Origin: Gammaproteobacteria bacterium
Lineage (GTDB): Bacteria > Pseudomonadota > Gammaproteobacteria > Pseudomonadales > Pseudohongiellaceae
DNA: 64,000 nucleotides
Assembly: GCA_029245395.1 (NCBI GenBank)
Contig: JAQWPL010000024.1
Span: 90,887-154,886, forward strand
Reading direction: 5' to 3'
The translations under genes were made by a program, and so were the position numbers. The notes below the pieces were generated by a model. That model saw only the letters and a list, made by a program, of their open reading frames with translations. It did no database searches and was not told the origin of the DNA. Of the stretch, positions 4,045-45,321 are shown piece after piece; position 1 is the stretch's first letter, and each line of letters starts with the position of its first letter.

Positions 4045-4049
4045 CGGTC

Positions 4050-5021
4050 ATGACCATGAACAATCAATTCTGTCTGCTCCGGTCCATCCATTTCCGCCTC
4101 CTGGCAGCAGGACTGATTGTCAGTCTCTGGTCAGTGACCGCACCGGCTCAGGAAAATACTTCCTATTCAGACCCTGGCACGTTTCCGGTTCACAACATGG
4201 AGACCATCGCCCTGAAAGACAATCTCCGCGGCACCGAAGTCCTGGTTCGAGTGTACTACCCGGAAGGCGCAGGTCCGTTTCCTGTTATCGCTTTCTCTCA
4301 TATGAATGGTGGTAACAAGGATATGTTCAGTGAAATAGGCACGCATTGGGCCAGCCATGGTTTTGTGGCCGTGCATTCAAGTCATGATGATACTGGCGTC
4401 ACCATGGCCCCCAACGGTGGAGGCATGCAACCGTCGGAACAAAAGGTTCGCGACCGGTTGCGCGACGTAATCGTAGTCTTTGATGCGCTCGATCAAATCG
4501 AGCGCGATGTTCCCGCCCTGGCGGAAAAACTTGATCGTGAGAAGCTGGCTGTTGCGGGACACTCTTATGGCTCATTTATCTCATTTATTGCTGGCGGTGT
4601 GACCATCGATATTGGTGGCGAAACAAATACAAATCTCGGCGATTCCCGTGTCAAATGTATTCTGCCAATGTCACCTTCCGGACCTGGTGATTACGGATTG
4701 AGTGATGCAAGCTGGCGCAACCTGGCTATGCCAACGCTAATTTTTAACGGCACCAACGATGCGCGGGCCGGGCGTGCAGAAGACTGGCGTATGGAACCTT
4801 ACCGGTTGAGCCCCGAAGGTAACAAATTTCAAATTATTATCGAAGGTGCTACTCACCGTGAGTACGGTGGAGATATACCCGGTGATGCACCAAAATATGT
4901 CAAGGCTGCATCAGCGGCTTTCTTTGATTTCTGTCTGAATGGAACCGCTGAAGGGAAATCCTATCTACAAGGTGGTTTCGACGAATTTGCCGATGGTGCG
5001 GCGACGATCTCCTTTAAATAG
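4050..5021 (+). CDS. Exported alpha/beta hydrolase (dienelactone hydrolase / PAF-acetylhydrolase-like)
   Basis: Signal peptide ending TAPAQE; nucleophile elbow VAGHSYGSF (GxSxG). The track ORF starts at 3981 inside the upstream gene; ATG 4050 follows the upstream stop. Confidence 0.75.
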   Translation: MTMNNQFCLLRSIHFRLLAAGLIVSLWSVTAPAQENTSYSDPGTFPVHNMETIALKDNLRGTEVLVRVYYPEGAGPFPVIAFSHMNGGNKDMFSEIGTHWASHGFVAVHSSHDDTGVTMAPNGGGMQPSEQKVRDRLRDVIVVFDALDQIERDVPALAEKLDREKLAVAGHSYGSFISFIAGGVTIDIGGETNTNLGDSRVKCILPMSPSGPGDYGLSDASWRNLAMPTLIFNGTNDARAGRAEDWRMEPYRLSPEGNKFQIIIEGATHREYGGDIPGDAPKYVKAASAAFFDFCLNGTAEGKSYLQGGFDEFADGAATISFK

Positions 5022-5891: not shown

Positions 5892-8129
5892 ATGGCACAG
5901 CAACCTCCTTCAATCAAACATACTCCGCTGACTGGTGACATTGCCCTGAACCGCCGTACTTTTATCAAACTCGGCGGCATCGCCGGTGGTGGTCTGGTGC
6001 TTGGTTTTACCCTTGGCGACAAGACCTGGGCCCAGGAGTCCGGTGATCCGCTAACCACGAATTACATCCAGATCCATCCAGATGGCAAGATAATTATCAT
6101 GGCAACACAGCCGGAAGTGGGTCAGGGCGTCAAAACCGCCTTTCCCATGCTGGTTGCCGAGGAGCTGGATGCGAACTGGGCCGATGTCGAGGTCCTGCAG
6201 TCTGAAATCGATGCCGGTCGATACGGCAGCCAGGCCGCTGCCGGTTCCCGTGGCACGCCAACCGTCTGGCTTCCCTTGCGGCAGGCAGGAGCCACTGCCA
6301 GGGCCATGCTGGTTGCCGCGGCAGCCATCCGTCTGGAGGTAGATGCCTCTGAGCTGCGCACACAAGACAGTAGCGTTTTCCACGATGCTTCCGACCGCAG
6401 TCTTTCCTACGCCGATCTGTCAGAACTGGCAGCGACCATGCCGATACCCGAGCCGTCATCTCTGCTTCTTAAGGAACGCGATGAGTGGCGCTTGATTGGC
6501 GGCAGTATCCCGGGGGTGGATAACACCAACATAGTCACCGGCAGCCCTCTTTTCGGTTTTGATCAGTTTCAGCCGGACATGCTCTATGCCAATTTTGTAA
6601 AAAGCCCCAGGGTCGGGGCGAAAGCCGAACTAGCTAATCTGGATTTCATCAAGACCCTTCCCGGCGTGGTTGACGCCTTCATTATGGAAGGCAGGGGTCT
6701 TCCTAATGACTATGTCCGGCGAGAACCTGCGATTCATTCCGGTGTGGTAGTAGTGGCCCGCTCTACCTGGAGCGCCATGAAGGCTGCTCGTCAGTTAGAA
6801 ATCCGCTGGGACAATAGCACCGCTGCATCGGATACCTGGACTGACCATGTGGCGACTGCCAGAACACTGGCCGGGAAACCCGGCCTGGAAACACTCAACG
6901 AGAAGGGGAGTGTGGACACTGTTTTTGACAGCGCTGACACAATAGCGGAAGGGTTTTATACCTATCCTTTTCTGGCCCATGCCAACCTTGAGCCGCAAAA
7001 CTGCACTGCCCGGGTTACCAATGACGGCATCGAGTTATGGGCGCCCACCCAGACTCCGCAGCGCGCCCTTACAGAACTTTCGGCGTTTTTCAATATTCCT
7101 GAGTCCAGTATTAATCTACATCAGATTCGCATCGGTGGTGGGTTCGGACGCCGGCTCGCCAATGACTATGTGGTAGAGGCCGCCGCCATCGCCGCCCGTT
7201 TTGATGTACCGGTAAAAGCTTTCTGGACCCGAGAAGATGATATGACCTTCGATTTCTACCGTCCCGGTGGTTTTCATTCCTTCAAGGCTGCCATTGACGG
7301 CGAAGGCAAACTAACTGCCTGGCAGGATCACTTCATTACCTTTGCTCGGTCTGGTTCCACTGAACCTCTGCGTACTGCCAACCTGCCGCCCGATGAATTT
7401 CCGGTGAGTGTGCTTGCCAATGCACGATTAACCCAGACCACTCTGGATTCCGGTATGCCGGCGGGCCCGATGCGCGCCCCTCGTTCCAATGCCATTGCTT
7501 TTGTCGTGGAATCTTTCCTGCATGAATGTGCAGTGGCTGCCAATCGCGACCATGTGGAATTTCTGCTGGAAGTGTTGGGTGAATCCCGCTGGCTTGATCC
7601 CGGTAATACGGGTTCACTAAACACCGAAAGGGCAGCATCTGTCATTCGCCTGGCCGCTGAAAAGGCTGACTGGGGCCGGCAGATGCCTGCTGGTCGCGCC
7701 CTTGGACTGGCTTTTCATTTCAGCCATGCCGGTCATTTCGCCCATGTAGCGGAGGTCAGTGTCAACGCTGGGAACCAGGTGACAATTCACAAGATTACTG
7801 TTGCCGGGGATATCGGTCCGATCATTAATATTAGTAGTGCCCACAACCAGGTTGAAGGCTGTGTGATTGATGCCATCAGCGCGCTTGGTCTGGAAATCAC
7901 GTTCAGAAATGGGCGGGTCGACCAGCAAAACTTCCACCAGTATCCCCTGGGCAGGATCGGCATCACACCGGAAATCGATATTCACTGGATTGAGTCTGAT
8001 TATAATCCAACAGGCCTGGGCGAACCGGCTTACCCACCTGTTATCCCGGCAGTAACCAATGCAATTTTTTCAGCCACGGGTCACCGGATACGAACGTTGC
8101 CGATCACTAAGGAAGGGTTTTCAGTTTAA
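5892..8129 (+). CDS. Molybdopterin-binding oxidoreductase large subunit (IorB / aldehyde oxidase-xanthine dehydrogenase family), Tat-exported
   Basis: Twin-arginine region NRRTFIKLGGIAGGG; IRIGGGFGRR motif; C-terminal [30 protein letters not shown]. Clear paralogue of 30174-32285. Confidence 0.85.
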   Translation: MAQQPPSIKHTPLTGDIALNRRTFIKLGGIAGGGLVLGFTLGDKTWAQESGDPLTTNYIQIHPDGKIIIMATQPEVGQGVKTAFPMLVAEELDANWADVEVLQSEIDAGRYGSQAAAGSRGTPTVWLPLRQAGATARAMLVAAAAIRLEVDASELRTQDSSVFHDASDRSLSYADLSELAATMPIPEPSSLLLKERDEWRLIGGSIPGVDNTNIVTGSPLFGFDQFQPDMLYANFVKSPRVGAKAELANLDFIKTLPGVVDAFIMEGRGLPNDYVRREPAIHSGVVVVARSTWSAMKAARQLEIRWDNSTAASDTWTDHVATARTLAGKPGLETLNEKGSVDTVFDSADTIAEGFYTYPFLAHANLEPQNCTARVTNDGIELWAPTQTPQRALTELSAFFNIPESSINLHQIRIGGGFGRRLANDYVVEAAAIAARFDVPVKAFWTREDDMTFDFYRPGGFHSFKAAIDGEGKLTAWQDHFITFARSGSTEPLRTANLPPDEFPVSVLANARLTQTTLDSGMPAGPMRAPRSNAIAFVVESFLHECAVAANRDHVEFLLEVLGESRWLDPGNTGSLNTERAASVIRLAAEKADWGRQMPAGRALGLAFHFSHAGHFAHVAEVSVNAGNQVTIHKITVAGDIGPIINISSAHNQVEGCVIDAISALGLEITFRNGRVDQQNFHQYPLGRIGITPEIDIHWIESDYNPTGLGEPAYPPVIPAVTNAIFSATGHRIRTLPITKEGFSV

Positions 8130-20800: not shown

Positions 20801-22135
20801 TCAGGCCTTGCTTGCCGGCGGAACGGGGCGGTCAATCACGAATGCCGCACTGGAAATCAGCACGGCACCAACGCACATTACAGCAAAGAACGGAACTGTA
20901 CTGCCTGCACCAATATCAAGCAGCGTGCCGCCAAACGCACTGGAACCGATGGCACCAAAGCGGCCCATGAAGATACCAAAGCCGATACCTGCTGAACGGC
21001 ATGAGGGCGGATAGGCGTGGGTCATGATGGCGTACATACTGGCGATACTGGCACTGAAAAAGGCAGCCGCTATGCCGATCAATGCAACCACTATCATCCT
21101 TTCGCTGTCACTCGGCACTTCCGACAGTGATTCCAACATAATGGGGAGCAGGATCAGGGTCACTAATAGTATTCCACTGAAAGAGGCCATGGCCAGTTTC
21201 GAGCCGAAGCGCTGCACAATCAGTCCGGCAGCGATGGAAGCAAAAATAGAGGTCAACCCGGCGATGGCAACCGCATTGGCGGCTTGATCAAATTCGAAGC
21301 CCTTTGCGGTCAGTATGGTGGTAGTCCAGCCCAAGATGCCATAAGCTACCATCGTCGCTGCAGTAAAGGCAAGACCTACGCCGATATTGAGTCGCTTGTT
21401 AGTGCGATGCAGCACGCCAATTGTACCGCCATCGGTATCGGGAAGATGAGTTTCTTCAATAAGATCAAGTTCTTCGTCAGTAACCCTTAGTGCTGCCTTC
21501 TTTGCTTCCTCAACTTTACCGCGTGCCATTAGGAAAGTGGGACTGTCGCGCAAGAAGGCGATGATCAAGACAACAACCAGGAGAGTAAGAACACCCAGAA
21601 AAACAAAGGAGCCATTCCAGCCATAACTTTCCACCAAACCGGGAGCCATGAGCCCCACCACCATACCGCCAGCGGGTGTACCCACTGAAAGGGTGGTCAC
21701 GCCCACTGAGCGCCAGCGTTCCGGTAACCACTCACCAGCCAGAGTGATGGCATTGGCATAGGCAGAACCGAAGCCCAGGCCACTGACTAGTCGCCAAAAT
21801 GCCATTTGCCAGACATCGGCGGATGTACTGACGGCGATGGTACCAAGGGAAAAAACAATAGCAGCAAGCGCCAGCGACCAGCGCCGTCCAACGATATCTC
21901 CGAGCCATCCTCCGCTCCAGGAACCGAGACCGAAACCGACCAGCGCTGCACTCAAGGCCAACCCAAAAGTTCCCCGGTCAATCCCAAAATCCTCAATGAT
22001 GAGGGGCGCTACGACACCGAGCATTTGTGCGTCCATACCGTCGGCGACTAGAACCACCCCGCAAATAATGAATGTAACTACCTGAAATGTACGTAGTGGT
22101 GTGCGTGCCATGACTTCACTGAATGTAACTGACAT
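20801..22135 (-). CDS. MFS transporter, aromatic acid:H+ symporter-like
   Basis: Twelve hydrophobic segments; motif A GWLGDIVGRRWS; N-terminus resembles the PcaK/BenK/MhpT type. Confidence 0.85.
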   Translation of the reverse strand: MSVTFSEVMARTPLRTFQVVTFIICGVVLVADGMDAQMLGVVAPLIIEDFGIDRGTFGLALSAALVGFGLGSWSGGWLGDIVGRRWSLALAAIVFSLGTIAVSTSADVWQMAFWRLVSGLGFGSAYANAITLAGEWLPERWRSVGVTTLSVGTPAGGMVVGLMAPGLVESYGWNGSFVFLGVLTLLVVVLIIAFLRDSPTFLMARGKVEEAKKAALRVTDEELDLIEETHLPDTDGGTIGVLHRTNKRLNIGVGLAFTAATMVAYGILGWTTTILTAKGFEFDQAANAVAIAGLTSIFASIAAGLIVQRFGSKLAMASFSGILLVTLILLPIMLESLSEVPSDSERMIVVALIGIAAAFFSASIASMYAIMTHAYPPSCRSAGIGFGIFMGRFGAIGSSAFGGTLLDIGAGSTVPFFAVMCVGAVLISSAAFVIDRPVPPASKA

Positions 22136-22216
22136 AAAACTTCCCCTAAAGATCGAAAGTAGAATTTACCACTAAATGACTCTTAGCTCTTTAATTCTCA
22201 CTCTTTTTTTTAAAAT

Positions 22217-22281
22217 GTGTTCTGACCCGGATTCTTGAGGTCACCTACCTGCACCTAAAACATGTAGGTAGAATACATCAA
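22217..22281 (+). repeat. MITE-like repeat, copy 2
   Basis: About 80 percent identical by eye to 20673-20737 and in the same orientation, on the other side of the MFS gene. Confidence 0.7.
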
Positions 22282-22318
22282 TTAGAGTGAAGATTTTCCC
22301 AAATATCAGGATGGGATT

Positions 22319-22582
22319 ATGCCAAATTACCTACGGACAATACTTCCAATTGCCATAATGAGTGGCTGTTGTGGTGTCGTCCTTGCTCAATTCAGTACTG
22401 GCCAGGAATATATCATGGTCAATTATGCCGCGGAGGCTGAAAAAAACCCGGTTGCTACGCTCCATGCCCGCATAGCCAGTGGGGAGGTGACGTTCGAGTA
22501 TAAGGATGATCGTGGCTATCTGGATTCCATGCTGGAAGCCCTGGATATCCTGCGCGACACAAAACCTGATTTTCGTCTCTAA
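22319..22582 (+). CDS. Short exported hypothetical protein, possibly a truncated gene remnant
   Basis: Signal-like N-terminus. NPVATLHARIASGEVTFEYKDDRGYLDSMLEALDI resembles the N-terminus of much longer proteins I recall, and the ORF then ends abruptly. Confidence 0.35.
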   Translation: MPNYLRTILPIAIMSGCCGVVLAQFSTGQEYIMVNYAAEAEKNPVATLHARIASGEVTFEYKDDRGYLDSMLEALDILRDTKPDFRL

Positions 22583-22618
22583 TACCTAACTGTTGAACTG
22601 GGGAGTAGAAGAAGACTA

Positions 22619-23473
22619 TTAAGGGTTTGGTAATGCAGCCAGGCGCTGCCGGGCATTTTTCAGACGCTCGTTTAGAAAAGCGACAAAGTCCTCCTGGTCC
22701 ACGAAGGGATGAGGTTGTCCGGGTTGTCTCTGGATAAGCATTTCAGCGCGCTGAAAAATCAGTGCTCCCCAGGGATGGCTGGTGAGGTTTACTGCAATAT
22801 CAGATGGCAGATCCCTTTGCAGGCGTTGTACGCTGTCGATAAACCATTCGAAGTTTTCGGCAACCCTGGAGGTTACATTATGGCCGCCAAACAGGAATGC
22901 TTGATGGGCTTCATCACCATCTCGTACGGGAAACTGCATGGAAAGCACGCCTGGCGTATGTCCAGGTGTGATGTAAAACTTAATTGTAGTATCACCCAGC
23001 GTAAGTGAATCACCGTCCTCAAACACCAGGTCTACTTCCTGATCCAGCATGGCCCAGTCTGCACTGCTCATTGCAATTCTGGCGCCAGAGACTTCCCTGA
23101 CTTCCTCGGATCCGCCGGCATGGTCGTTGTGCCCATGGGTAATCAGAACATACTTGACATCGTCCGGCTCAAAACCTAACTCCTGTACGGACTGTAAAAG
23201 CTGGGCAGTAAACTCATTATAGAGTGAGTCAAACAGGATCAGTCCCTCGTCAGTAACAAGCAGATAGGCGCTGACAAAGGTGGTCCCCACGTAATAAAAA
23301 TTATCAAAGAGTTGAACAGGACCTGCATATTCTTGCGTCTGTGGCGTGGCGTCAGCTGGACGCTGCCCGTCAGTGGCGGCGCTCAGTTCTTGGGCATGAG
23401 ACAACTGGGATATTGAAAGTGAAAGTGACAGCACTAGCAAACAAAAATGAAACAAACCGGTTATTTTTCTCAT
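22619..23473 (-). CDS. Exported metallo-beta-lactamase fold hydrolase
   Basis: Signal peptide; HxHxDH motif ITHGHNDHAGG; later TPGHTPG. Confidence 0.85.
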   Translation of the reverse strand: MRKITGLFHFCLLVLSLSLSISQLSHAQELSAATDGQRPADATPQTQEYAGPVQLFDNFYYVGTTFVSAYLLVTDEGLILFDSLYNEFTAQLLQSVQELGFEPDDVKYVLITHGHNDHAGGSEEVREVSGARIAMSSADWAMLDQEVDLVFEDGDSLTLGDTTIKFYITPGHTPGVLSMQFPVRDGDEAHQAFLFGGHNVTSRVAENFEWFIDSVQRLQRDLPSDIAVNLTSHPWGALIFQRAEMLIQRQPGQPHPFVDQEDFVAFLNERLKNARQRLAALPNP

Positions 23474-23502
23474 TACTGATCCCTTGGGTTGATTCATTTG
23501 TT

Positions 23503-24564
23503 CTATGGTAATCGCGAGTAAGTATAATCACCTGATACATGTGAAATGATAAAGCTTTCTACCTCACCATCATTGTTAACAATAAACCGGTAACCGAGTC
23601 CCAACCCGTCAAATAAGGTCTCTGAAAAAGGCACCAGTGCTCGCGGCACACCTTCCTCCAGGCCTGCGGCTCCGAGGCCCAATGCGCTGTAAGCGCTAAC
23701 GATAGTGGCGATCAGTTCGCCTCCTATGAATGATATTTCGTAAACCCGCTCGCCTCCACCATAAATCCCGCTGTAAACACCGACGTACTGCGCCAGGATT
23801 TCTGGCGACACAGATACTCTTTTCGCTTCGGTTACTGATAAGTTACCCGACCAATCGTCACTGCCGCGTTCGCACACTGACTCAAGCATTTCCGTATCTG
23901 CCTGCACAGTCATATTCATGTCAAAGCCCCACGGTGTTGCGAAGGCATCTGGATCGGTAAAGGTAATCTCTGCTTGCATGTGGCCGAAATCCGAACGGCT
24001 GTAGCGCTCATTAACGCGCAGTGCTTCAGTGTGCGAAACCCCGAATCGACTGACCCAGGTTTGATCGTTAAAGCCAACAGTATCGACAACAAGGGTGTCA
24101 CCATCCCAATGGCCCACTGAATACCCTGTCCAGCTTGGTACCGGGTTTGCTTCCAACTCGCGACCATCCATATGAATCAGCCGATAAGTGAGATTTTCGT
24201 TCAAGATGATTAAAGTTGCCGGTGTCTGAATAAAGCGTTTCCAGCCTGCAAAACTTTCTGTCTCGGGTCCGTTAGGCAGACACCGAAATAGGGGGCGTTC
24301 CTTATAGAAGTCCTGCTGACGTTGACTGGCAAGTTCAGAAACCCAGGGTTGCAAATTAGCGGGATCGAGACGGGCGACGGGAGGAGGTCCATTCCATATG
24401 CCGGTAAAATCCGGCTTGTTATCGAGTCCACGTGGTGCTGGCGCGGTCAGATCAGGTTCGCCATCCGCGGTACGTGGGATGTCCGGCCAGAGACGAGCCA
24501 GCCATTGGGCTGTTGCAGGTACCGTGATTGAGAACAGTATTAGTACCACTACAAATTTTTTCAT
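23503..24564 (-). CDS. Secreted C-module protein with an extra C-terminal domain
   Basis: DNKPDFTGIWNGP, RCLPNGP, GYSVGHWDGDTLVVDTVGF, VNERYSRSD, ESVCERG. About 110 further residues follow (YVGVYSG...ISFIGGELIA), resembling DUF3471-like tails. Confidence 0.8.
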   Translation of the reverse strand: MKKFVVVLILFSITVPATAQWLARLWPDIPRTADGEPDLTAPAPRGLDNKPDFTGIWNGPPPVARLDPANLQPWVSELASQRQQDFYKERPLFRCLPNGPETESFAGWKRFIQTPATLIILNENLTYRLIHMDGRELEANPVPSWTGYSVGHWDGDTLVVDTVGFNDQTWVSRFGVSHTEALRVNERYSRSDFGHMQAEITFTDPDAFATPWGFDMNMTVQADTEMLESVCERGSDDWSGNLSVTEAKRVSVSPEILAQYVGVYSGIYGGGERVYEISFIGGELIATIVSAYSALGLGAAGLEEGVPRALVPFSETLFDGLGLGYRFIVNNDGEVESFIISHVSGDYTYSRLP

Positions 24565-24574
24565 AGGTGAGTTC

Positions 24575-25609
24575 TTAGGCTGATTCAGAATTTTGCCTTT
24601 CATTCAATTTTTTAATTGCCCAGCGCGCTGAAACTCTCGGTTTGTCTGATTGATGATCAACAAGCCTGTCTTCTCCTAATTCTGTAACACGAAGTTGCTG
24701 CGCCTCGACCATCGCCTTGTCCTCTGCCAGGGCTACCTGAATTTCTTCCGTTAATTTTACCGTTGCAGCAGGATTGTCAGTTTCGTGTCCATTTGATACT
24801 GACCAAAAATAAAAACAAGACGTGTCAGTTTCAGGGGTAATCGTGTGAAATATTCGCATGTCAAAACGTGGCGCACCCGCAGTTTTTCGGTCTTCACCGG
24901 CAGGTACACCACCGGAATACTGAATCACAGTAGAGGGAGCGACAAATTCAAATTCTTGCCACCGATCAATCCGCTCTGGTAGCTGCACGCAATTATTGTA
25001 TGTTTCCGGAGGAGGGGAGTTTTGCATAAATCGATTAAGGACTATGCCGTTGTCGGTAGTGGATAAGTCGTTTTGCGCAACCATATGTACATCGGGTGAA
25101 GACCCGCCCACTGAGCCTGAATGAAGGTAAGATAAATGGGTGGCATCCAGTAGATTATCAATCAGCATAATATAATGAGACTTTACGGGGAGCACGTCAT
25201 GGTAATGAGGCCAATTCTTTGTGTCATTATGAAAGGGATGATCAGGAATTAAACTTTCGTCAGCCTTTTCCGGGGAGCCTATCCATATCCAAAGCATTTG
25301 ATCTTTTTCAATTAATGGGAAACTGTCTACGCGCGCTTTTGCCGATATGTTTTTTTGGTTAGGAATTTCTACACAAGCACCGCTACAGTCAAATACAAGG
25401 CCGTGATAATTACAACGAAGTCCATTTTCTACTACTGCTCCTAAACTAAGCGGTGCGCCCCTATGACTACAGCTATCCAACAGAGCATTCGCTTTGCCTT
25501 CCAGTGTTCGATACAAAACAATAGGTTTGTTACATATCCTTCTAGCGATTGGATTTGTAGTAATCTCATCTGCCCAGGCAGCTAAATACCATGAATTATT
25601 GACTATCAT
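24575..25609 (-). CDS. Rieske [2Fe-2S] non-haem iron oxygenase, VanA/phthalate-family type
   Basis: CSHRGAPLSLG...CNYHGLVFD Rieske motif; N-terminal WYLAAWADEI typical of VanA-like oxygenases. No reductase gene adjacent. Confidence 0.85.
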   Translation of the reverse strand: MIVNNSWYLAAWADEITTNPIARRICNKPIVLYRTLEGKANALLDSCSHRGAPLSLGAVVENGLRCNYHGLVFDCSGACVEIPNQKNISAKARVDSFPLIEKDQMLWIWIGSPEKADESLIPDHPFHNDTKNWPHYHDVLPVKSHYIMLIDNLLDATHLSYLHSGSVGGSSPDVHMVAQNDLSTTDNGIVLNRFMQNSPPPETYNNCVQLPERIDRWQEFEFVAPSTVIQYSGGVPAGEDRKTAGAPRFDMRIFHTITPETDTSCFYFWSVSNGHETDNPAATVKLTEEIQVALAEDKAMVEAQQLRVTELGEDRLVDHQSDKPRVSARWAIKKLNERQNSESA

Positions 25610-25914
25610 TTCTTATTCTCATCAAGAACTCTTCTCATTACTTGCCAGTAAGAACCTTAAGGCAAGAGATATTTCATGCAGTATATATATACATATAATA
25701 GTAAGTGGAATCAAAGGGGAGGGGAAGCTTGAAATGAGAAAATGTTGAGCCCCTTTAGTTTGGTTTGCCCTGCAGGTCCGTCAGCCGGCTGACTATCTTT
25801 GGATTTCTTAAGAAAGCTGTACTAATTCCAGCTAGATGCAAGTTTTATTGTCTCTGGAATGTATAACAGTTTAAGATTGCTTTAAACAGCATTGATATCC
25901 GGGAGAATGATCTG

Positions 25915-26946
25915 ATGGAAATTAACCATCTCAATCCGATTTTTAAATTTGTCATCTTAACGGCTTCACTGCTGTTGTTTCCTTTCAGTGCCATTGCTCA
26001 CCATTCGCATGCAAATCTTAATGCCAATGATATTCAGACTCACCGTGGTGTCGTAGAACAATACGGCTGGGGTATGCCGCATGTCTATATAAAGGTAAGC
26101 GCACCCAATTCAAAGGGTGAAATCGTTTTATATAATATCGAGTTGGTCAATCCGCCTGGCATGCTACAACGGGGCTGGGATAAAAACTCATTGAAACCAG
26201 GAGACTTGATTACATGGGAAGGTACAGCTGACCATAATCCAAATCGTTATTACTCTGGCCTGAATTGGGCCGAAAAGGCTGACGGCAACCGACTCACGAT
26301 GACAGTCAGGCCTGCGGAAACTAATCCATCAATTGATTTTTCCGGTCTCTGGATGAGAGATCTGCGAGGTGGTAAGCCCTTTTATACGCCCCCTGAAGAT
26401 TGGCCCTACAGCGAATTGGGAAAACAAATGGTCGCTAGCTTTAATGAAAACGACAACCCTCAGGTTTCCTGTATTAACCCGGGCATTCCCAAAGCCACAT
26501 TATTACCTTATCCCATGCACATTACCCGGCAAGATGAGCAAACTTTGATTTTCAAATATGAATTGCGTGAACATCAAAGAACCATCGTATTGGGTCGGCC
26601 CAGGTTACAAGAAGAACCCTCTGTTTTAGGAACTTCAGTTGCACGCATGGGAGACAATAAAATTATTATAGAAACAGATAATTTTGTTGCAGATAAATGG
26701 GGAACACATACAGGTGTCAACTCCAGTGCACAGAAACGTCTGCGTGAAGAAATTTCATTATCAGAAGATGGTAAATCCCTGAATATTATGATGGTAGTAA
26801 CGGACCCGGTATATTTTACTCAACCGGTTATTATCGATTATCACATGAAGAAAATGCCAGACCGTGAATTGATTCAGTTGCCTTGTACGCTAGAGAACTC
26901 AAGGTTTTTTCTCGATGCTGGTTTAATCGGCCGTGTATCGGAGTAG
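25915..26946 (+). CDS. Secreted fused N-module + C-module protein
   Basis: Signal ending AIA then HHSHANLN; WGMPHVYIK; LQRGWDKNSLKPGDLITWEG. C-part: IDFSGLWMRD, SCINPGIP, QLPCTLEN. Confidence 0.8.
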   Translation: MEINHLNPIFKFVILTASLLLFPFSAIAHHSHANLNANDIQTHRGVVEQYGWGMPHVYIKVSAPNSKGEIVLYNIELVNPPGMLQRGWDKNSLKPGDLITWEGTADHNPNRYYSGLNWAEKADGNRLTMTVRPAETNPSIDFSGLWMRDLRGGKPFYTPPEDWPYSELGKQMVASFNENDNPQVSCINPGIPKATLLPYPMHITRQDEQTLIFKYELREHQRTIVLGRPRLQEEPSVLGTSVARMGDNKIIIETDNFVADKWGTHTGVNSSAQKRLREEISLSEDGKSLNIMMVVTDPVYFTQPVIIDYHMKKMPDRELIQLPCTLENSRFFLDAGLIGRVSE

Positions 26947-29640: not shown

Positions 29641-30177
29641 ATGGCGATCATCAGCTTCACGCTCAATGGGAATGTCGAGACAATAGACGTGGTACCCGAT
29701 ATGCCGCTGTTGTGGGCTCTGCGAGATACCCTGGGGCTTACCGGTACCAAATTCGGTTGCGGGATTGCGCAGTGTGGTGCTTGTACCGTGCATTTGGATG
29801 GCGCGCCTGTACGTTCGTGTGTGCTCCCGGTGACAGCTGTGAATGGCAGGAACATTACCACCATCGAAGGCTTGCCTGCTGACATTGGCTCCTCAGTGCA
29901 GCGTGCCTGGCAGGATGTCGATGTGCCGCAGTGCGGGTATTGTCAATCTGGACAAATCATGTCGGCGACTGCACTGCTCAGTGTCAATGCCAACCCAACA
30001 GATACCGAGATCAATTCGGCCATGAACGGCAACATCTGTCGTTGTGGCACCTATCAGGTCATTCGTGAGGCGATTCATCGTGCAGCTGACTATATTGCGG
30101 ACAATGAACTTGCGAGCAATTCACTTGCAACTAATGCACTTGAGAAAAACGAAGACGAAGCAGGAGGTGCCGTATGA
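29641..30177 (+). CDS. [2Fe-2S]-binding small subunit of a molybdenum hydroxylase (IorA-like)
   Basis: [12 protein letters not shown] and [10 protein letters not shown]...CRCGTY cluster motifs. Confidence 0.9.
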
Positions 30178-32285
30178 ACCATCTTCCTTTCAAGCTGGAT
30201 CGTCGTCAATTTCTGGGTTCCAGTGTCGCGACGGCTGGTGGTCTCTTCCTGGGAACAGTCTGGCACAGCGAACTGTCAGCTCAGTTCGGGCGCCCGGCAC
30301 CGGCAGTTGTTCCTGACGCCTTCATTCATATTGGCGCAGACGATATTGTTACCCTGATAATTCACAAGCCTGAAGTGGGTCAGGGCACTGAAACCTCCAT
30401 TGCTATGCTGTTGGCCGAGGAGCTGGATTGTGATTGGGATAAAGTCCGAACCGTTTTTGCCCCCGTTGATGCTGTATACGGGGCACCTTTTCAGGGGACT
30501 GTCGGAAGCATGGCAATACGTACAAGTTGGATGCCCATGCGAATGACTGGCGCCGCTGGCCGCGAAATGCTGATTCAGGCGGCAGCAACTCAATGGGGTA
30601 TTGATCCTTACCGTTGTCGGACCGGCAATAGTCTGGTCACGGATATAGAGACCAATGAAAGTCTCAGTTATGGCAGCCTGGCCGAAGCCGCTTCAACGCT
30701 TGAAGTACCTGATAATCCTCGCCTGAAGGAGGCCAGTGAATTCAACTTGCTGGGCACTCCGGTTAAACGCCGGGATACCGCTGTCAAAATTAACGGGCAG
30801 GCACAATACGGAATTGATATCAGCCTGCCAGGAATGGTCTATGCGGTGTTGGCCAGATGCCCGGTTCCAGGTGGCACACTGCTGAGTTTTGATGTCAGCG
30901 CTACAAAGGCTGTACCCGGCGTTCTGGATGTCATCGAAGTCCCTCAGGGAGTTGCTGTCATTGCCGATAACACCTGGGCTGCCATTTCCGGTCGCAGGGT
31001 GCTTCAGGTACTGTGGGACGAGGGTGAAAATGCCACACTGAATTCAACCGACATCAGTGCGCACCTACATGAACTGGTGTCGCAGCCGGGTGTAGTGGCA
31101 CTCGATAAGGGTGATGCAGACACAGCCCGGGAAGCCACTGTAAAAACTGTTGAAGCGCGTTATGAAGTGCCTTATCTGGCCCATGCGCCGATGGAACCAC
31201 TCAATAGTGTTGCTAGAGTGAATGCTGAAACCTGTGACGTGTGGACCGGCACCCAAATGCCGGGTATTGCACACCTCTCTGCCGTTCAAGCCTGCGGTTT
31301 GCCCGCAGACCAGGTGAATATCCACTCACAATACGTTGGCGGGGGATTTGGCTCTCGAGGCGGCGGTCCTCTGGTAGCCGAAAGCGTCGAGATTGCCAAA
31401 CAACTTGGTGGCGTGCCGGTCAAGCTGTTATGGACTCGCGAGGATGATCTGCAACATGATCGTTTTCGACCCGTTTCCTGCGTTCAATTTAATGCTGGCG
31501 TCGATGCGTCAGGAATTCCAGTGTCATGGAAGGGAACCGTGGCCTGTTCATCTTTCATGGGTTTGCGCGATGGCATTGATCGGGAATCAATTTCTGGCCT
31601 GGCCGAACTTGCCTATGATTTCCCCTATGTCCATTTCCAATACCATGAGCCGGGTATTACAGTTCCCACCAATTATTGGCGCTCGGTCGGGCTTTCCCAG
31701 AATACGTTCTTTGCCGAAAGCTTTATCGATGAGCTTGCCGTACAGGCAGGCATGGATTCGGTTGACTACCGCAGGACATTGCTTGCCGACAATCCGCGGT
31801 TGTTGGCTGTACTCAATCTGGCAGCGGAAAAGGTTGGCTGGAACGGCCCGCCACCAAATGGCAGGTTTCGAGGCGTTGCCGTGATGAATGGTTTCGGCAG
31901 TTTCAATGCGCAGATTGTTGAAATTTCTCTGGAGGCGGAACAGGTACACGTCCATCGTGTGGTGAGTGCTATTGATTGCGGCAGCGTTATTAATCCTGCA
32001 GGTGTTGTTCAGCAGGTGCAAAGTGCAATTGTGTACGGCTTGAGTGCAGCTTTACGGGGCGAGATCACGTTTGAGCAGGGTCGAGTTCAACAGACCAATT
32101 TGCATCAATATGAGCCACTGCGCTTGAAGGAAATGCCGGTAGTAGAAGTGCATATCGTAGCCAGCGATGCCGCGCCGGGAGGTGTTGGAGAATTAGGAAC
32201 ACCAGCAATCGCTCCGGCAGTAACTAATGCCATTTTCAGCGCTACAGGGAAAAGACTACGTCGGCTTCCAATCGACCTTGCATAA
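30174..32285 (+). CDS. Molybdopterin-binding large subunit (IorB-like), Tat signal
   Basis: ATGA overlap with the small subunit gene; [15 protein letters not shown]; [11 protein letters not shown]; [28 protein letters not shown]. Confidence 0.9.
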
Positions 32286-38520: not shown

Positions 38521-38703
38521 GATGTCCTATTTAAAATTTTAATCCATCATTTGATTAGGGGTAAAACAAGGAATCAAGGGGAACCAGCTACCAGTATGCT
38601 GTTGATGTGTGGACTCGTTACTGTTGCAGGTTTATGCTCCCTTTTATACCTGTATTAATAGAGTAGACGGCAAGAAATGTACGTTGATTTAATAACGGAG
38701 AAA

Positions 38704-39834
38704 ATGATGAAACGCTTTTTAGCCAAATCTGTATTTTCAGCACTGACACTGACAATGGTGCTCAATAGCGTAAATGTCCTGGCACACCATTCCTTTGCCG
38801 CAGAGTTCGATGCTGACTCAATCGGTCACTTCCAGGGGGTTATTACCGAGGTGCGTTTCACCAATCCTCATGTTCGCTATCGGATTGAAGTGGAAAGTGA
38901 TGATGGCATCACTGAATCCTGGGAGCTGCAAGCTCGCAGTATTACCTCGCTAAGAGCGGAGGGCTGGTTAAAGGACAGTGTCAATGTGGGCGATGTGGTC
39001 TCGGTAGAGGGGCAGTTAGGCAGGAACGGCACAAAAAAACTTTTTATACGAGGTATTCAAATACAAGGTGGAGCGGGTTTAGGCAATATGGCGCGCAGTG
39101 AAAATGAAAATACCGGAAGCCAGGATGATCTTGTCGTCGCCAATGCGCAGGGTGGTTATGGTTTTGGGGATATTGAAACGAATTATCCTGTCGATATCAC
39201 CGGGTACTGGAGCAACCGATACAAATTTCAAACCACAGTAGATGACCTTCAACCGAAGCCGGTGCCGTTAACCCCTGAGGGCCGGGCGCTCTATGAAAGT
39301 AACGATAAATATGATGATCCGGTACTGCGCTGCCTCGCCTACGGTTTACCACGCACGTTTGGCAATCCTTACAACATGACAGTCTACGATGCAGGTACTC
39401 ATTACATGATGTTGCATGTTGATCAAAATTCCCCGCGCCGAGTCTGGATGGATGGAAGGTCACCCGATGCCAATACCCCAGCAACGTCCAATGGCTATTC
39501 GGTGGGACGCTGGGAAGGCAGGGAACTGTATATTGATACAACCCACTTATTAGGAGGCTGGCTGGATGGTTCCGGTTACCCCATGAGTGGCGAAGGTACA
39601 CGCATTGAAGAGCGTTTCACCATTGCCGCAGATGGCCTCACCATGGACCGAGTCATGACAATTCATGATCCGTATTACACTGCACCTTTGACGCGAGTAC
39701 GTGGTTCAGCGCGGGGCACTAACCTGGATGTTTATCAGCAGGGAGCCTGCGATCCCACCGGCTACTTTTCAGATCTGCGGGAAGCCGGCACGTTGGGTGA
39801 ATACCTAAATCCGGAACAATACCTGGCTCAATAA
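38704..39834 (+). CDS. Secreted fused N-module + C-module protein
   Basis: Signal ending VLA then HHSFAAEFD; FTNPHVRYR; LRAEGWLKDSVNVGDVVSVEG. C-part: VDITGYWSNR, RCLAYGLP, GYSVGRWEGRELYIDTTH, IEERFTI, QGACDP. Confidence 0.8.
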   Translation: MMKRFLAKSVFSALTLTMVLNSVNVLAHHSFAAEFDADSIGHFQGVITEVRFTNPHVRYRIEVESDDGITESWELQARSITSLRAEGWLKDSVNVGDVVSVEGQLGRNGTKKLFIRGIQIQGGAGLGNMARSENENTGSQDDLVVANAQGGYGFGDIETNYPVDITGYWSNRYKFQTTVDDLQPKPVPLTPEGRALYESNDKYDDPVLRCLAYGLPRTFGNPYNMTVYDAGTHYMMLHVDQNSPRRVWMDGRSPDANTPATSNGYSVGRWEGRELYIDTTHLLGGWLDGSGYPMSGEGTRIEERFTIAADGLTMDRVMTIHDPYYTAPLTRVRGSARGTNLDVYQQGACDPTGYFSDLREAGTLGEYLNPEQYLAQ

Positions 39835-39863: not shown

Positions 39864-42299
39864 ATGGTCATGGGTTTAAACAACATTTGGAGAAATATCG
39901 GTAGCGTTTTTACCATGCTGCCGGTTGTCCTTTTTATGATGATCGGCTGGAGTCCTTCAGCCATCAGTGCTGATGAACGGCCCGTGAATGGAAATGTCGC
40001 TTACGATAGTCTGGAAGACTGGACAAGTCGCAGTGATCCGGAATTAAATCTTTTAGAGCAATACTGCATGGAGTGCCATAACTCCACGGATTGGGCTGGG
40101 GGCGTGGCCTTTGATTTGATGTCTCTGGAGGAACTGGATCATGACGCCGCCATCTGGGAAGAGGCAGTTCGCAAGCTCCGGGCTGGACTAATGCCCCCCC
40201 AGGGAAAACCGCGACCGGAGCGAGCAATACTTGATGGCATGGCGAAGTGGTTAGGAACCGGCCTGGATCTGGCCTGGGATGTATCGCCCAATCCGGGTGC
40301 GGAACCGGTTTCGCGCCTCAATCGTGAAGAATACAGGAACGCGGTGTGGGATGTGCTGGCGTTCGATGCAGGGGATCTCGTGGGCACGCTTCCTGCGGAC
40401 GAAATTGCAGGAGGCTTTGACAATATCGCACAGGTTCTTAGCATGTCGCCGACTTTGCTTGAAGGCTACCTTTCGGTGGCGATGCAGATCAGTAAGCAAG
40501 CGGTAGGCGATATTGCCACGGTGCCGACACAGGTCGAGTACCGGGCAGGTGGTGGGAATTCTCAACAAGGTTATGTCGAGGGTCTTCCGCTCGGAACACG
40601 TGGGGGCATGATGGTCGAGCATTTCTTCCCCGTTGATGCGAAATACGAGTTTCAGATCTCAGCCAACATCGCTGCCTATGGGCGTAGTCCTGATACCGGG
40701 CGAATGAGTTGGTGTGAAGGCCCCAAAATTGAAGTGATGTTCAATGGTGTCTCCCTGCCAGTGGAAGACCCCACGCAGTTTCGACTTGAAGTACCCGCTG
40801 GTCCACATTCCATTGCATTGGCTCTACTCGATGAGCGTCATTGTATCGGCACCGGCGAGTTCCTCCTCGGCGACACCAACCCGTCAGCCGGAAGTGTCCA
40901 GGGTCTGGAAATCGATGGACCGTACAACATAAGCGGAGCTGGAGACACGCCCAGCAGAAGAGCGATTTTTGTCTGCCAGCCTGATCGTCCAGAAGCGGAA
41001 GAGTCTTGTGCCCGGCAAAACCTTAGTCAACTCGCCACTCGAGCTTATCGGCGCCCGATCGGTACCCAGGATCCGGAAGTCGATACATTGATGCAATTCT
41101 ATGATACGAGCCGCAATGTTGAAGGTGGGAATTTCGAAAGCGGTATTCAGAGCGCACTCACATGGTTGCTTGCGGACCCCAGGTTTCTGTACCGATTCGA
41201 GGAAGAGCCAACTGGTCTAATGGCTGGTGAGGTGTACCGAATCAGTGATATCGAGTTAGCTTCCAGGTTGTCCTTTTTCCTCTGGAGCAGCATCCCGGAT
41301 GAGGCACTGCTGGGATTGGCTGCGCAAGGGGAGCTGGGAGAGGAAGATGTGCTGGAGCGGGAAGTGCAGCGCATGTTGACGGACCCACTCGCGGCTACGC
41401 TTATAGAGAACTTTGTCGGCCAGTGGTTGCTGTTGCGCCAGTTGGAGGAAGCGGTACCGCAAGCCCCGGCATTCGATGCTGACTTGCAGGAAGCCATGCG
41501 GCAGGAGACCTTGCTCTTCTTCCGGAGTCTGGTACGTGAAGACAAAAATCTCCTGAACCTTCTCGACGCTGACTATACCTATTTGAACGAACGTCTCGCG
41601 ACGCACTATGGAATGGAAGGTGTGTGGGGCGGGTACATGCGCAGAGTCGAGCTGCCAGAGGACAGTCCCCGCCGGGGTCTTCTGGGGCACGGTAGCATAC
41701 TGACTGCGACGTCGGTACCGAATCGAACTTCACCGGTGATCAGGGGGGCGTGGATCGTGGAAAACATTCTCGGGGCTCACGTGCCGCTTCCGCCTCCAGG
41801 TGTTGAGACAAATCTCGACCAGCCGGCATCCGGTCAGGATGTGCAGGCTGACACCCTGCGCCAGAGACTGGAGTTGCATCGGGCTGATCCGTCTTGTGCA
41901 TCCTGCCACCAGATTATGGATCCCGTCGGTTTTGCACTGGAGAACTTTGACCTGATCGGTCGTTGGCGCTCACTCGACAATGGGCTGTCAATCAACACAG
42001 CGTCCGAGATGGTAGATGGTACTTATATAGATGGGCCTGCTACATTGCGTGCCGCCCTGTTGGCAAGACCGGAAGCTTTCATGACCTCCATTAGCGAGCG
42101 ATTGCTCACCTACGCGCTGGGAAGGGAGCTGGATCACTTTGACGCGCCTGCGGTGCGACGTATCGTTGAGCAGGCAGTCTCGGAAGGGTTTACCTGGACT
42201 GCGCTGGTGCAGGCGGTTGTGTTGAGCGACCCGTTTCAGCAGCGCATTAAACCGGAAGTAGAGGGCGTGACCACTGCGCAAACTGCCCCCCGGGACTAG
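39864..42299 (+). CDS. DUF1592/DUF1587/DUF1588/DUF1595-type protein with N-terminal CxxCH
   Basis: [23 protein letters not shown]; large alpha-rich body; C-terminal [19 protein letters not shown], typical of this family. Confidence 0.75.
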
Positions 42300-42371
42300 G
42301 GGCTGTGTACACTATGACCCGACATATAGACATATATAGAACAGAGAAAAAAGAACAGAGCAAAAGCTGAT

Positions 42372-43655
42372 ATGAATTATCTGACGAAGAAACATATATC
42401 CCGGCGTAAACTCCTGCGAGGCACTGGCGTTTCACTTGCTCTGCCTTTTCTGGAGTCCATGAATCCGGCCGGGACGCTACGCGCTGCCGAGTTGGGGACA
42501 CCCAGGTCGAGGTTGGCTTGTATCTATATTCCTCATGGCGCAGTTCAGGATCGCTGGGAACCGTCGGCCGTTGGCAGGAACTTTGAGTTCAGTCCGACGC
42601 TGCAGGCCCTGGAGCCATTCCGCGATCACATCAATATTGTCAGCGGTCTGACTTTACCAGCGGCATATGAAGGGGATCCTTCTGCTGGCGCGAATCACCG
42701 TCGTTCTTCCCGGTGCTGGCTTACCTGTGTTGCACCTGGCACTGGCCCGTCACCGACTTCGATGGATCAGGTGGCAGCAGATTACATCGGTCAGGATACG
42801 CAGCTACCTTCACTGGAGCTCTCTCTGGAAGAGCGTTTCTCCATATCCTACCGAACACCCAACAATCCGATGCCTATGCAGGCCAATCCGCGGGTGGTGT
42901 TTGAACGGCTGTTCGGGGACGGCAGTTCTCCGGAAAAACTCGCCGCGCGAAGACAACAAAGGGCGACCATTCTTGATGTCGTACGACAGGAAATTAATTC
43001 TTTGCAGCGCACACTGCCATCAAATGACCGCATCCGGATGGAGCAATACCTGAACGATGTCCGTGAAGTGGAGCGACGCCTGAGCCTGGAAATGGATGCT
43101 TTACCCCGGGAACTGGACCTGCCTGATAGACCATCAGGCATTCCGGATAATTTTGAGGATCATGCGATGATCATGTTCGATTTGATAGCGCTTGCCTGGC
43201 AGGCTGACATAACGCGTGTTTCCACCATGATGTTGGCACAGGAGCTCACTAATCGGGCGTTTCCGCGGAGCGGAGTGAATGAGCCTTTCCATAATTGTTC
43301 CCATCACATGGAAATCGCGGAAAATATAAACCGTCTTGCGACACTTAACGCCTACCATTTGCGCAGCACAATGGGTTATTTCGTCGCCAGGCTGAGCGCG
43401 ACGCCAGACGGAGATGGCTCTCTGCTGGATCATTCCCTGGTAATGTACGGTAGTGGAATGGGCGACTCACAGAATCACAACCACAACTCGCTGCCGGTTG
43501 TGCTTGCGGGCGGCGCATCCGGAAGGGTGGCTGGCGGGAAGCATGTGCGCGTGGACGCCAGCACCCCGATTTCCAATCTTCTGGTAACGATGCTCGACAA
43601 GGTGGGCGTGCCTGTCGACAGGTTTGCAGACAGCAACGGTAGCGTGGATATCTGA
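42372..43655 (+). CDS. DUF1552 family protein, Tat signal
   Basis: SRRKLLRGTGVSLALPFLESM is the family-typical N-terminus. This family usually pairs with DUF1592 genes. Confidence 0.75.
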   Translation: MNYLTKKHISRRKLLRGTGVSLALPFLESMNPAGTLRAAELGTPRSRLACIYIPHGAVQDRWEPSAVGRNFEFSPTLQALEPFRDHINIVSGLTLPAAYEGDPSAGANHRRSSRCWLTCVAPGTGPSPTSMDQVAADYIGQDTQLPSLELSLEERFSISYRTPNNPMPMQANPRVVFERLFGDGSSPEKLAARRQQRATILDVVRQEINSLQRTLPSNDRIRMEQYLNDVREVERRLSLEMDALPRELDLPDRPSGIPDNFEDHAMIMFDLIALAWQADITRVSTMMLAQELTNRAFPRSGVNEPFHNCSHHMEIAENINRLATLNAYHLRSTMGYFVARLSATPDGDGSLLDHSLVMYGSGMGDSQNHNHNSLPVVLAGGASGRVAGGKHVRVDASTPISNLLVTMLDKVGVPVDRFADSNGSVDI

Positions 43656-43674
43656 ACATGGAGGAGACTCTGTC

Positions 43675-45321
43675 GTGAGCATAGTAAAAAGTCGGATATT
43701 GTTTTACCCGTGTTGGTTGTGCGGTGTTCTGTTGATCAGTTCGCTCGCCCAGTTCGGCGGCTCGGCAATTGCCCAGACACTATCCGTGCCGAGACCGGAT
43801 CAGTTGCAGGGTTCACCTGTTGCGGAAGCGGCCAGGCAAGGGGACCGGCAAGCTGTGCAGACATTGCTGGAGCAAGGGCAGGATGTTAACGGCTGGAGCA
43901 GGGATGGCACACCGGCTCTGCACTGGGCAGTACGCGTTAACGACCAGGGTCTGGTCGACATGCTGCTCACTGCGGGTGCAGACGTGGATGGTGCAAATCG
44001 GTATGGGCAAGCCCCCATCCACGTTGCCGTGCAGCATCAACATGCAGACATACTTCAGCGCTTGCTGGAGGCCGGCGCCGATATAGAGACAACGGATGCA
44101 AGCGGAGAGCAGCCGCTGCTCCTGGCAACACGACTTGGTGCTTTCGACATGGTGGAGGCGTTGTTGGCCCACGGGGCGCAGGTAGATGCGCGTGATCTGA
44201 GCTATGGACAATCGGCCCTGATGATTGCCGTGCGAGAGGAAAATTCTGCACTGGTGCAGCGTCTTCTTGGAGCCGGCGCCGATGTCAACGCGCAGAGTCT
44301 GGCTGGTGAGGCAGACAGGTTTATCCTTCCCAGCGAAGTACCTGTGGGGACATCCAAGGGAGTGGGTATCAACCGTATGGGATGGCCGGACCGAGGAATG
44401 CGCCTCCCGATCACCGGAATGAAGACTCCTCTTATGTATGCAACAAGGCAGGGCAATCTTGAACTCACACAAATCCTGGTGGAAGCAGGAGCCGACATCG
44501 AGATTGCGGATGCAAATGGATTCAAGCCTCTGATCAATGCGATCCTTAATCACAGTATAGTGAACGTCAATAGTTCCGGGCAAAGTGAGCACTTGATGAT
44601 TGCCCGGTATTTGATCGAGGCAGGCGCGAACGTCAATGCCCAGGACTGGTATGGGCAAACGCCTCTTTGGGCTGCAGTCGATATTCGAAACCTGTATTTC
44701 CAGGTGACAGCAGCGTCCAATCGGGTGGACAGAGAGTCTGCATACGCGCTGATAGAGTTACTGCTGGCAGCGGGTGCAGATCCGAATTCACGAACAAAAG
44801 AATTCCCTCCCGAAAGGCGCTTTATTGCAGGCACCGGTTCCAACGGGTGGGTCGACATGACGGGACAAACACCATTTCTGCGCGCGTCGCTGGCGGGCGA
44901 TCTGCGGGTATTGCACCTGCTACTCGAGAATGGGGCTGATCCCAGTATCACTACATACGGAGGCACCACTCCGTTAATGGTGGCTGCCGGTATCACCTGG
45001 GCATTCTCGGAAACTTACGATGAAGGCAGTGATGCTCTCCTGGAAACGGTGAAGCTGACACATGCACTTGGACACGGTATCAACGCTGTTAACTCGATGG
45101 GGTTACGAGCGATTCACGGTGCTGCCAATCGCGGATCCAACGACATCATCTCCTACCTGGTGGAGAACGGTGCGCTACTGGATGTGATCGACAATGAAGG
45201 TCGCACGCCCATCGCCTGGGCAGAGGGCGTACTGACGGGGGCGCGAGCGCCGTTCCAGAAGACGGAGACGATCGCACTGTTGCAGGAGTTACAGTCCAGA
45301 GCTCCGTTGCAACTCGAATAA
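43675..45321 (+). CDS. Exported ankyrin-repeat protein
   Basis: GTG 43675 behind GGAGGA; signal peptide ending AIAQ; many GxTPLHxA / LLxxGADVNA repeat units. Confidence 0.8.
   Translation: MSIVKSRILFYPCWLCGVLLISSLAQFGGSAIAQTLSVPRPDQLQGSPVAEAARQGDRQAVQTLLEQGQDVNGWSRDGTPALHWAVRVNDQGLVDMLLTAGADVDGANRYGQAPIHVAVQHQHADILQRLLEAGADIETTDASGEQPLLLATRLGAFDMVEALLAHGAQVDARDLSYGQSALMIAVREENSALVQRLLGAGADVNAQSLAGEADRFILPSEVPVGTSKGVGINRMGWPDRGMRLPITGMKTPLMYATRQGNLELTQILVEAGADIEIADANGFKPLINAILNHSIVNVNSSGQSEHLMIARYLIEAGANVNAQDWYGQTPLWAAVDIRNLYFQVTAASNRVDRESAYALIELLLAAGADPNSRTKEFPPERRFIAGTGSNGWVDMTGQTPFLRASLAGDLRVLHLLLENGADPSITTYGGTTPLMVAAGITWAFSETYDEGSDALLETVKLTHALGHGINAVNSMGLRAIHGAANRGSNDIISYLVENGALLDVIDNEGRTPIAWAEGVLTGARAPFQKTETIALLQELQSRAPLQLE

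Follow-up and report, generated by a model that had tools for sequence, protein, structure and literature searches.

A Rieske oxygenase gene inherited together with genes for a predicted periplasmic barrel protein and a metallo-beta-lactamase-fold hydrolase in a small clade of marine Gammaproteobacteria

The three genes and their products

The window analysed here, a stretch of 64,000 nucleotides (nt) from a gammaproteobacterium, covers positions 90887-154886 of contig C1 in genome G000 (2.9 Mb, about 2900 open reading frames, ORFs) and carries on its minus strand three closely spaced genes, referred to below as the trio. In the direction of transcription these are a Rieske oxygenase gene (24575-25609; 344 amino acids (aa), predicted cytoplasmic), a gene for a predicted exported protein of 353 aa (23503-24564) made of a C-module, a domain recurring throughout this genome, and a C-terminal extension, and a gene for a predicted exported hydrolase of the metallo-beta-lactamase (MBL) fold (22619-23473; 284 aa). 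They are separated by 10 nt (24565-24574) and 29 nt (23474-23502), and the coordinates and gaps given in an earlier note on this DNA (hereafter the original prediction) were thus reproduced. Its naming of the three gene products agrees with the Pfam matches, motifs and models, and so does the export pattern it described, with leader peptides on the C-module protein and the MBL and none on the Rieske protein. Neither of two alternative in-frame starts further upstream, at 24603 and 23497, is supported; homologues of the middle protein start at the residue matching 24564. In a consensus scan both gaps were free of terminator-like sites, whose count in the region did not exceed the shuffled expectation. 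The junctions of the C-module gene with the Rieske and MBL genes, and of the MBL gene with the downstream major facilitator superfamily (MFS) transporter gene, are all crossed by independent seawater metagenome contigs at 99% identity or more, therefore the layout is not an assembly artefact. Three metatranscriptomes provided a single matching contig, of 181 nt, within the Rieske gene.

From its domains and motifs, the product of the first gene is predicted to be a VanA/DdmC-type (phthalate-family) Rieske non-heme-iron oxygenase alpha subunit. It matches the Pfam families Rieske (1e-19) and VanA_C (2e-40, across 192 of 193 profile positions), carries the Rieske [2Fe-2S] motif CxH-x15-20-CxxH as CSH-x17-CNYH (CSHRGAPLSLGAVVENGLRCNYH at residue 47) and displays the mononuclear iron motif D/E-x2-H-x4-H (NLLDATHLSYLH at residue 152) in the VanA_C-type domain. 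Its closest solved relative in the PDB is the dicamba O-demethylase DdmC (3e-45, 158 bits). It shares with DdmC and VanA, which are alpha3 Rieske oxygenases, both domains, both metal motifs and the lack of a beta subunit, but scores under every equivalog cut-off (VanA, DdmC, SdmA, GbcA and others; the best NCBIfam match is SdmA, with 94.7 bits for a cut-off of 600) and has no adjacent reductase gene. The absence of a nearby reductase, already pointed out in the original prediction, extends to the whole 212-kb contig C1, on which no FNR-type reductase (PF00175) was matched; the one Fer2-FAD_binding_6-NAD_binding_1 reductase of the genome, on contig C2 (G000:C2:26297-27316), is a candidate in-trans partner. 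In G001, a complete genome of the genus, the Rieske orthologue (G001:C4:184778-185795; loci L013 and L042) is broken into two overlapping frames and is probably a frameshifted pseudogene.

The 353-aa protein has no match in Pfam or NCBIfam and starts with a predicted Sec-type leader (residues 1-20, MKKFVVVLILFSITVPATAQ, followed by W). Its C-module of about 200 aa is common to six other ORFs of the window and to 89 genes genome-wide in an iterated hidden Markov model (HMM) search; its extension of about 110 aa is present in only four of these 89 proteins. The whole protein has more than 6000 homologues. Among the top 120, identity ranges from 60 to 90%, most lengths are 350-355 aa, and sources giving a name call them hypothetical. 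An alignment search gave its strongest match, to the 353-aa protein, in 13 of the 15 other genus genomes, and the protein belongs to a tight orthologous group. A metagenome protein of 482 aa (P0042), considered as a possible fusion, proved to join two incomplete tandem copies of a C-module plus extension gene by read-through, which shows that this orthologue has been duplicated in tandem elsewhere.

According to AlphaFold2 (pLDDT 86.5 and pTM 0.80 for the whole protein, pLDDT 94.8 for residues 28-238 alone) and Foldseek, the C-module (residues about 28-238, window 23851-24483, minus strand) would fold as a calycin-like barrel. The confident model shows an antiparallel beta-barrel whose N-terminal segment is helical, as in FABP/UnaG, lipocalins, avidins and nitrophorins, and calycins are the top Foldseek matches of the C-module alone (UnaG, nitrophorin, Tp0751, avidins), together with OlmO; the best one is UnaG (E 7e-3, TM 0.36/0.50). 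It differs from calycins by its larger size (about 210 aa), a conserved disulfide pair (C95, invariant, and C231, nearly invariant), a periplasmic location and its 89 copies per genome. Profile searches revealed no relative of solved structure for the C-module and, in the PDB, nothing for the whole 353-aa protein and a match at E=0.47 only for the extension.

The extension (residues about 240-353, window 23506-23847, minus strand) resembles, in the model and by a weak Pfam match, the domain DUF3471 (PF11954), a lipocalin-like domain accompanying serine beta-lactamase-fold hydrolases. With the whole two-domain model as query, Foldseek retrieved the esterase IS11 (7spn, the best match, E 2.6e-6, probability 1.0), a D-aminopeptidase (1ei5) and the PBP-type cyclases Ulm16 (8fek) and SurE (6ksv), hydrolases that carry such a domain at their C-terminus, with E-values from 2.6e-6 to 2e-3 and probabilities of 0.98-1.0; these matches are assigned to the extension because of the aligned length and because the C-module alone does not give them. 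The DUF3471 profile scores 14.8 bits against the extension, far under the gathering threshold of 29.3 (E=0.039, profile positions 3-89 of 103), and E=0.0054 against the extension of an orthologue. The motif L-x2-Y-x-G-x-Y ... dGqL is shared with DUF3471 domains, but the extension has a second barrel, and no hydrolase, as its fusion partner, and the hydrolase encoded next to it is a metalloenzyme instead of a serine enzyme. A literature search on lipocalin domains in family VIII esterases returned nothing.

The third gene is predicted, from profile matches and aligned metal ligands, to encode an exported subclass-B3-like MBL-fold hydrolase. Its product combines a Lactamase_B domain (7e-23) with a leader peptide, and its best NCBIfam matches belong to subclass B3, with CAR, BJP-1 and FEZ-1 as the closest. 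All six zinc ligands (H116, H118, D120, H121, H196 and H263) are present, within HGHNDH, GHTPG and SHP aligned to BJP-1. Fold, HxHxDH motif with His196 and His263, and periplasmic export are thus shared with the B3 enzymes BJP-1, FEZ-1 and CAR-1; conversely, the protein stays under all NCBIfam B3 cut-offs (bla_subclass_B3, 144.9 for 240; CAR, 195.8 for 500) and is encoded in a catabolic-looking operon, and MBL paralogues occupy conserved operons with C-module and DUF6152 genes. The composition of the gene gave no sign of a foreign origin (GC 0.498, 0.493 for the window).

Inheritance of the trio among relatives

In a small clade of marine Gammaproteobacteria, the three genes of the trio are inherited as one unit and most likely constitute a single operon: they lie on the same strand with gaps of 10 and 29 nt, and their order is kept in four metagenome contigs (L211-L214). 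With blastn, these contigs match a 3.05-kb block of the minus strand (22617-25631), which begins some 20 nt before the Rieske ATG and ends with the MBL stop, as a single colinear stretch with 87% nucleotide identity (25628/25631 to 22619/22617), and homology resumes outside the block only in some of the flanks. The trio is followed by an MFS gene and HlyIII and preceded by a TonB-dependent transporter (TBDT) gene in L211, it lies between an insertion sequence (IS) element and a BCCT gene in L212, and between a divergent fusion of DUF6152 and C-module (N-C fusion) and an opposed BCCT transporter gene in L213 and L214; a MarR gene is found near it in L212 and L213. The recurrence of the trio with different flanks therefore identifies it as a unit, though only in a shallow clade. 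The three genes are under purifying selection, with dN/dS of 0.07-0.12 at dS of 0.31-0.55, and the Rieske protein retains 94-95% aa identity with those of L211-L214 (dN/dS 0.07-0.10).

The MBL has close homologues (88-92%) only within the same trio, identity falling to 67% for the next homologue, and no orthologue of it was found in 15 genus genomes, where the best match is 41% identical. A search anchored on the Rieske gene in 40 relatives had initially suggested that the trio was not conserved, and the picture was reversed by a later search anchored on the MBL. An arrangement unique to this genome, which the original prediction had named, along with a lack of co-expression, as fatal to it, is thereby rejected: the trio is missing from the GTDB representatives of the genus, but four contigs carry it.

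Adjacency of the Rieske gene and the gene for the C-module with extension extends beyond the trio. In the two nearest species representatives (88% identity for the Rieske protein and 81% for the C-module protein), the C-module gene precedes the Rieske gene; SnoaL and MFS genes lie close by, and the MBL gene is missing. On a contig encoding a C-module protein 90% identical to that of the trio, the order is Rieske, opposed Y1 transposase and C-module, with an MFS gene directly after and again no MBL. Altogether the two genes were found adjacent in six arrangement variants, including the reversed order and the inserted transposase. One contig of metagenome X1 follows the C-module gene and then, from a break at 23507 just past the stop codon, continues with 255 unrelated bases, so a co-occurring strain has different DNA where the MBL lies here; this flank was not found elsewhere in the window.

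A 14-bp palindrome, GTCAGCCGGCTGAC, lies upstream of the Rieske gene at 25780-25793. It is missing from the corresponding spacer of L213 and L214, of which the only conserved parts are the approximately 115 nt proximal to the N-C fusion and the last 25 nt or so before the Rieske ATG, and is therefore unlikely to be a conserved operator.

Partners of the C-module/DUF6152 family

The 89 C-module genes (iterated HMM) of G000, together with 72 genes for the DUF6152 N-module (jackhmmer), with 26 fusions, constitute a family of 135 genes, or 4.6% of about 2900 ORFs. C-module copies amount to at least 62 in most of 16 genus genomes (lowest 52) and to 7-42 in other genera of the taxonomic family, and none was detected in 16 genomes from other families of the order. 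A literature search for DUF6152 returned nothing. Genome-wide statistics were based on gene calls from a simple longest-ORF caller. Because of the high density of the family, adjacency by chance needs a control, and the baseline is given by the 5.4% of non-family genes that abut a family gene.

Against this baseline, the statistically supported partner of the family is the periplasmic MBL-fold hydrolase and not the oxygenase. The genome harbours 30 MBL-fold (PF00753) genes, and eight of 29 abut a family gene (binomial p=1e-4, and 6e-4 without the index case), two of these eight having degenerate zinc motifs (NWRPEH and QWHPQQ). Moreover, an operon made of a C-module gene, a DUF6152 gene and the gene of an exported B3-like MBL with an intact HAHPDH motif (G000:C23:7347-9554) is present in 11 of the 16 genus genomes (loci L139, L126-L128, L130, L131, L133, L140-L142 and L147). 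Two of the three large Rieske-domain genes, taken as oxygenases, also abut a family gene (p=0.0085). The second one encodes a VanA-type oxygenase (G000:C28:29512-31361, L027), 34% identical to that of the trio, and is directly followed by a short C-module gene. This second pair is found in five of the 11 genus genomes with that oxygenase subgroup (L027, L016, L017, L018 and L030) and missing in six, and its C-modules are orthologous, with 73-86% identity to one another. Other paralogues with the C-terminal extension were considered as further neighbours of Rieske or MBL genes, and none was: they lie beside DUF6152 genes, COQ7 or a contig end.

The partners of the family as a whole are varied. 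Among the 55 operon partners, defined as same-strand genes within 150 nt of a family gene, Lactamase_B is the commonest Pfam domain (four), followed by VanA_C/Rieske, Sulfatase and Amidohydrolase (two each) and many singletons, so that sulfatases, amidohydrolases, esterases and Mo-dehydrogenases are all represented. When clustering is considered, the most enriched neighbour is the small [2Fe-2S] subunit of Mo-dehydrogenases, seven of eight lying within two genes of a family gene (p=7e-7), with two such sites in the window (29641-32285 and 5892-8129); TonB-dependent receptors come second (five of 16). A single locus cannot define the substrate class of the family, since the family has 135 members and its 55 partners belong to many enzyme classes. 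The original prediction saw in the trio the clearest guilt-by-association clue to this substrate class, a rank that passes to the MBL-fold hydrolase, and it linked the family to aromatic catabolism, which is plausible for this locus but does not follow for the whole family.

Possible role of the operon and its surroundings

We propose, with a probability of about 0.4, that the operon is an entry module for one compound, probably a poorly soluble organic one. The periplasmic two-barrel C-module protein would take up the compound, free or conjugated, in a cavity of calycin type and present it to the B3-type zinc hydrolase, for cleavage of a bond such as an ester, a lactone or a lactam. The resulting acid could then cross the inner membrane via the MFS carrier, which resembles aromatic-acid/H+ symporters (AAHS), where one adjoins, and be demethylated or hydroxylated by the cytoplasmic VanA/DdmC-type Rieske monooxygenase, with electrons delivered by a reductase encoded elsewhere, possibly the candidate on contig C2. 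Ligand binding by the barrels, their cooperation with the hydrolase, the order of the steps and an aromatic substrate are inferred, while the data show directly the gene identities, the export signals, the intact metal sites, a block kept by purifying selection and the recurrent adjacency of family genes with MBL and Rieske genes. An aromatic ester or a related compound is a reasonable guess for this locus, because the window is rich in ester- and aromatic-related enzymes.

Several observations weigh against this proposal. The linkage of the trio is limited to lineages at about 87% nucleotide identity, so the conservation in relatives that was to be checked holds at this distance and is lost at a greater one. 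Six genomes with a Rieske orthologue at 72% identity have no adjacent gene for a C-module with extension, and in three of them both genes are on one contig, 24-60 kb apart. Orthologues of the C-module protein with extension at 63-75% identity have other neighbours (sulfotransferases, amidohydrolase, DLH, sulfatase, TBDT, 2-oxoglutarate (2OG) oxygenase, Mo-dehydrogenase with SnoaL_4, and other MBL subfamilies), and MBL homologues at about 60% identity occur in unrelated contexts. A universal tie of the family to Rieske or B3-like MBL genes is rejected, only three and two of 71 diverse family loci, respectively, having one within 8 kb. Since 4.6% of all genes belong to the family, adjacency by chance has to be reckoned with, and the Rieske enrichment drops to p=0.11 without the index case. 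About 190 nt upstream of the Rieske gene differ between contexts, the last 25 nt or so with the ribosome-binding region being kept. Finally, no Foldseek match of the C-module reaches E<0.001, and the substrate of an oxygenase in the cytoplasm need not be the molecule on which the two exported proteins act.

These points feed the main rival explanation, which we consider less likely than the entry module: a periplasmic pair of C-module protein and MBL and a separate cytoplasmic pair of Rieske oxygenase and MFS transporter would have been brought together by a recent rearrangement, the block having had no time to break up. It accounts for a link between the family and MBLs that is strong and widespread, for a Rieske link that is weak outside the genus and derived, the two genes being 24-60 kb apart in other species, and for a region prone to rearrangement, as indicated by the IS element, the Y1_Tnp gene, the variable flanks and the strain variant breaking at 23507. 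It fits poorly with an adjacency of Rieske and C-module genes that survives six rearrangements, including an inversion of their order, and with the second such pair, whose Rieske protein is about 30% identical, kept in five genomes; moreover a dS of 0.3-0.55 represents time enough for the replacement of flanks.

It is improbable, in our estimation, that the C-module protein has a catalytic activity of its own, or serves together with the His-His proteins of DUF6152 as a subunit in a periplasmic metalloenzyme, the MBL and the Rieske oxygenase then acting on its products. Such a role would agree with the frequent pairing or fusion of C-modules with DUF6152 (the 72 N-module genes and 26 fusions mentioned above, and the divergent N-C fusion next door), with the invariant E186 and D204 and several near-invariant Arg in the C-module alignment, and with the enzymatic nature of some calycin-fold proteins, for example the match OlmO. 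However, the C-module revealed neither a catalytic motif nor a metal site, the trio operon has no N-module of its own, and the fold matches, weak as they are, are binding proteins. Least probable of all, and in our view very unlikely, is that the MBL is an ordinary environmental B3 beta-lactamase, hitch-hiking in the operon for self-protection against beta-lactams and uninformative on the family. Its best family matches are indeed B3 beta-lactamases (CAR, BJP, FEZ), it has the six zinc ligands and a leader peptide, and one source labels its homologues “metallo-beta-lactamase class B”; yet it scores under every NCBIfam B3 cut-off, and MBL-fold genes of different subfamilies, including some whose motifs are degenerate, are enriched beside family genes, which points to a common role unrelated to antibiotics.

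The proposed entry module can be compared with the cluster for uptake and catabolism of the lignin-derived dimer DDVA in Sphingobium sp. SYK-6, which comprises the TBDT gene ddvT, the Rieske O-demethylase oxygenase gene ligXa, the MFS gene ddvK and the MarR gene ddvR (PMC6874591). The likeness is one of gene layout: in both cases a Rieske oxygenase gene is clustered with an MFS transporter gene, joined in L211 by a TBDT gene and in L212 and L213 by a MarR gene near the trio, and the electron-transfer partners are separate proteins. Unlike the trio, the DDVA cluster lacks a periplasmic barrel protein and a periplasmic hydrolase, and no ring-cleavage genes lie beside the trio here.

At the scale of the family, one may speculate, with more doubt than for the trio itself, that the C-module/DUF6152 proteins constitute an undescribed periplasmic substrate-handling system, whose barrels would capture diverse poorly soluble molecules delivered by TBDTs and hand them to MBL-fold or other hydrolases or to oxidoreductases before import. 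If so, the trio would be the first family member whose substrate could be found experimentally, and it is a practical starting point in that it ties a member of the family to two enzymes whose chemistry is known and whose active sites are intact. Neither Pfam nor NCBIfam has a match for the C-module (the N-module being Pfam DUF6152), yet the family represents several percent of the genes in an abundant marine lineage, and a presentation of substrates by barrels to periplasmic hydrolases, if true, would explain part of the processing of dissolved organic matter by oligotrophs.

The MFS transporter gene (20801-22135, minus strand) lies 483 nt downstream of the MBL gene. Its best-scoring family is TIGR00895 (AAHS; 215.9 bits, under the cut-off of 418.55), followed by PcaK and MhpT, in line with the aromatic-acid-type neighbour originally described. 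The spacer between both genes (22136-22618) contains an orphan plus-strand ORF of 87 codons (22319-22582) with no Pfam match and may be a rearrangement scar. On the other side, the divergent N-C fusion gene (25915-26946, plus strand) is the same neighbour as in L213 and L214 (87% aa identity). The N-C fusion beside the orthologue P0062 was considered as its orthologue and rejected, with an identity of only 23%, and no ancestral layout is claimed.

Farther away in the window, a tannase/feruloyl esterase (1042-2619, 1e-80) and a PAF-AH/PETase-like hydrolase (3981-5021) are encoded among several family genes, and a carboxylesterase, a SnoaL_4 protein and the two Mo-dehydrogenases are also present. 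Directly after another N-C fusion gene (38677-39834), the region 39864-45321 encodes a multidomain PSD/PSCyt protein of planctomycete type, which combines DUF1592/1588/1585/1587/1595 with a cytochrome c motif, and then a DUF1552 (HXXSHH) protein and a long protein with ankyrin repeats.

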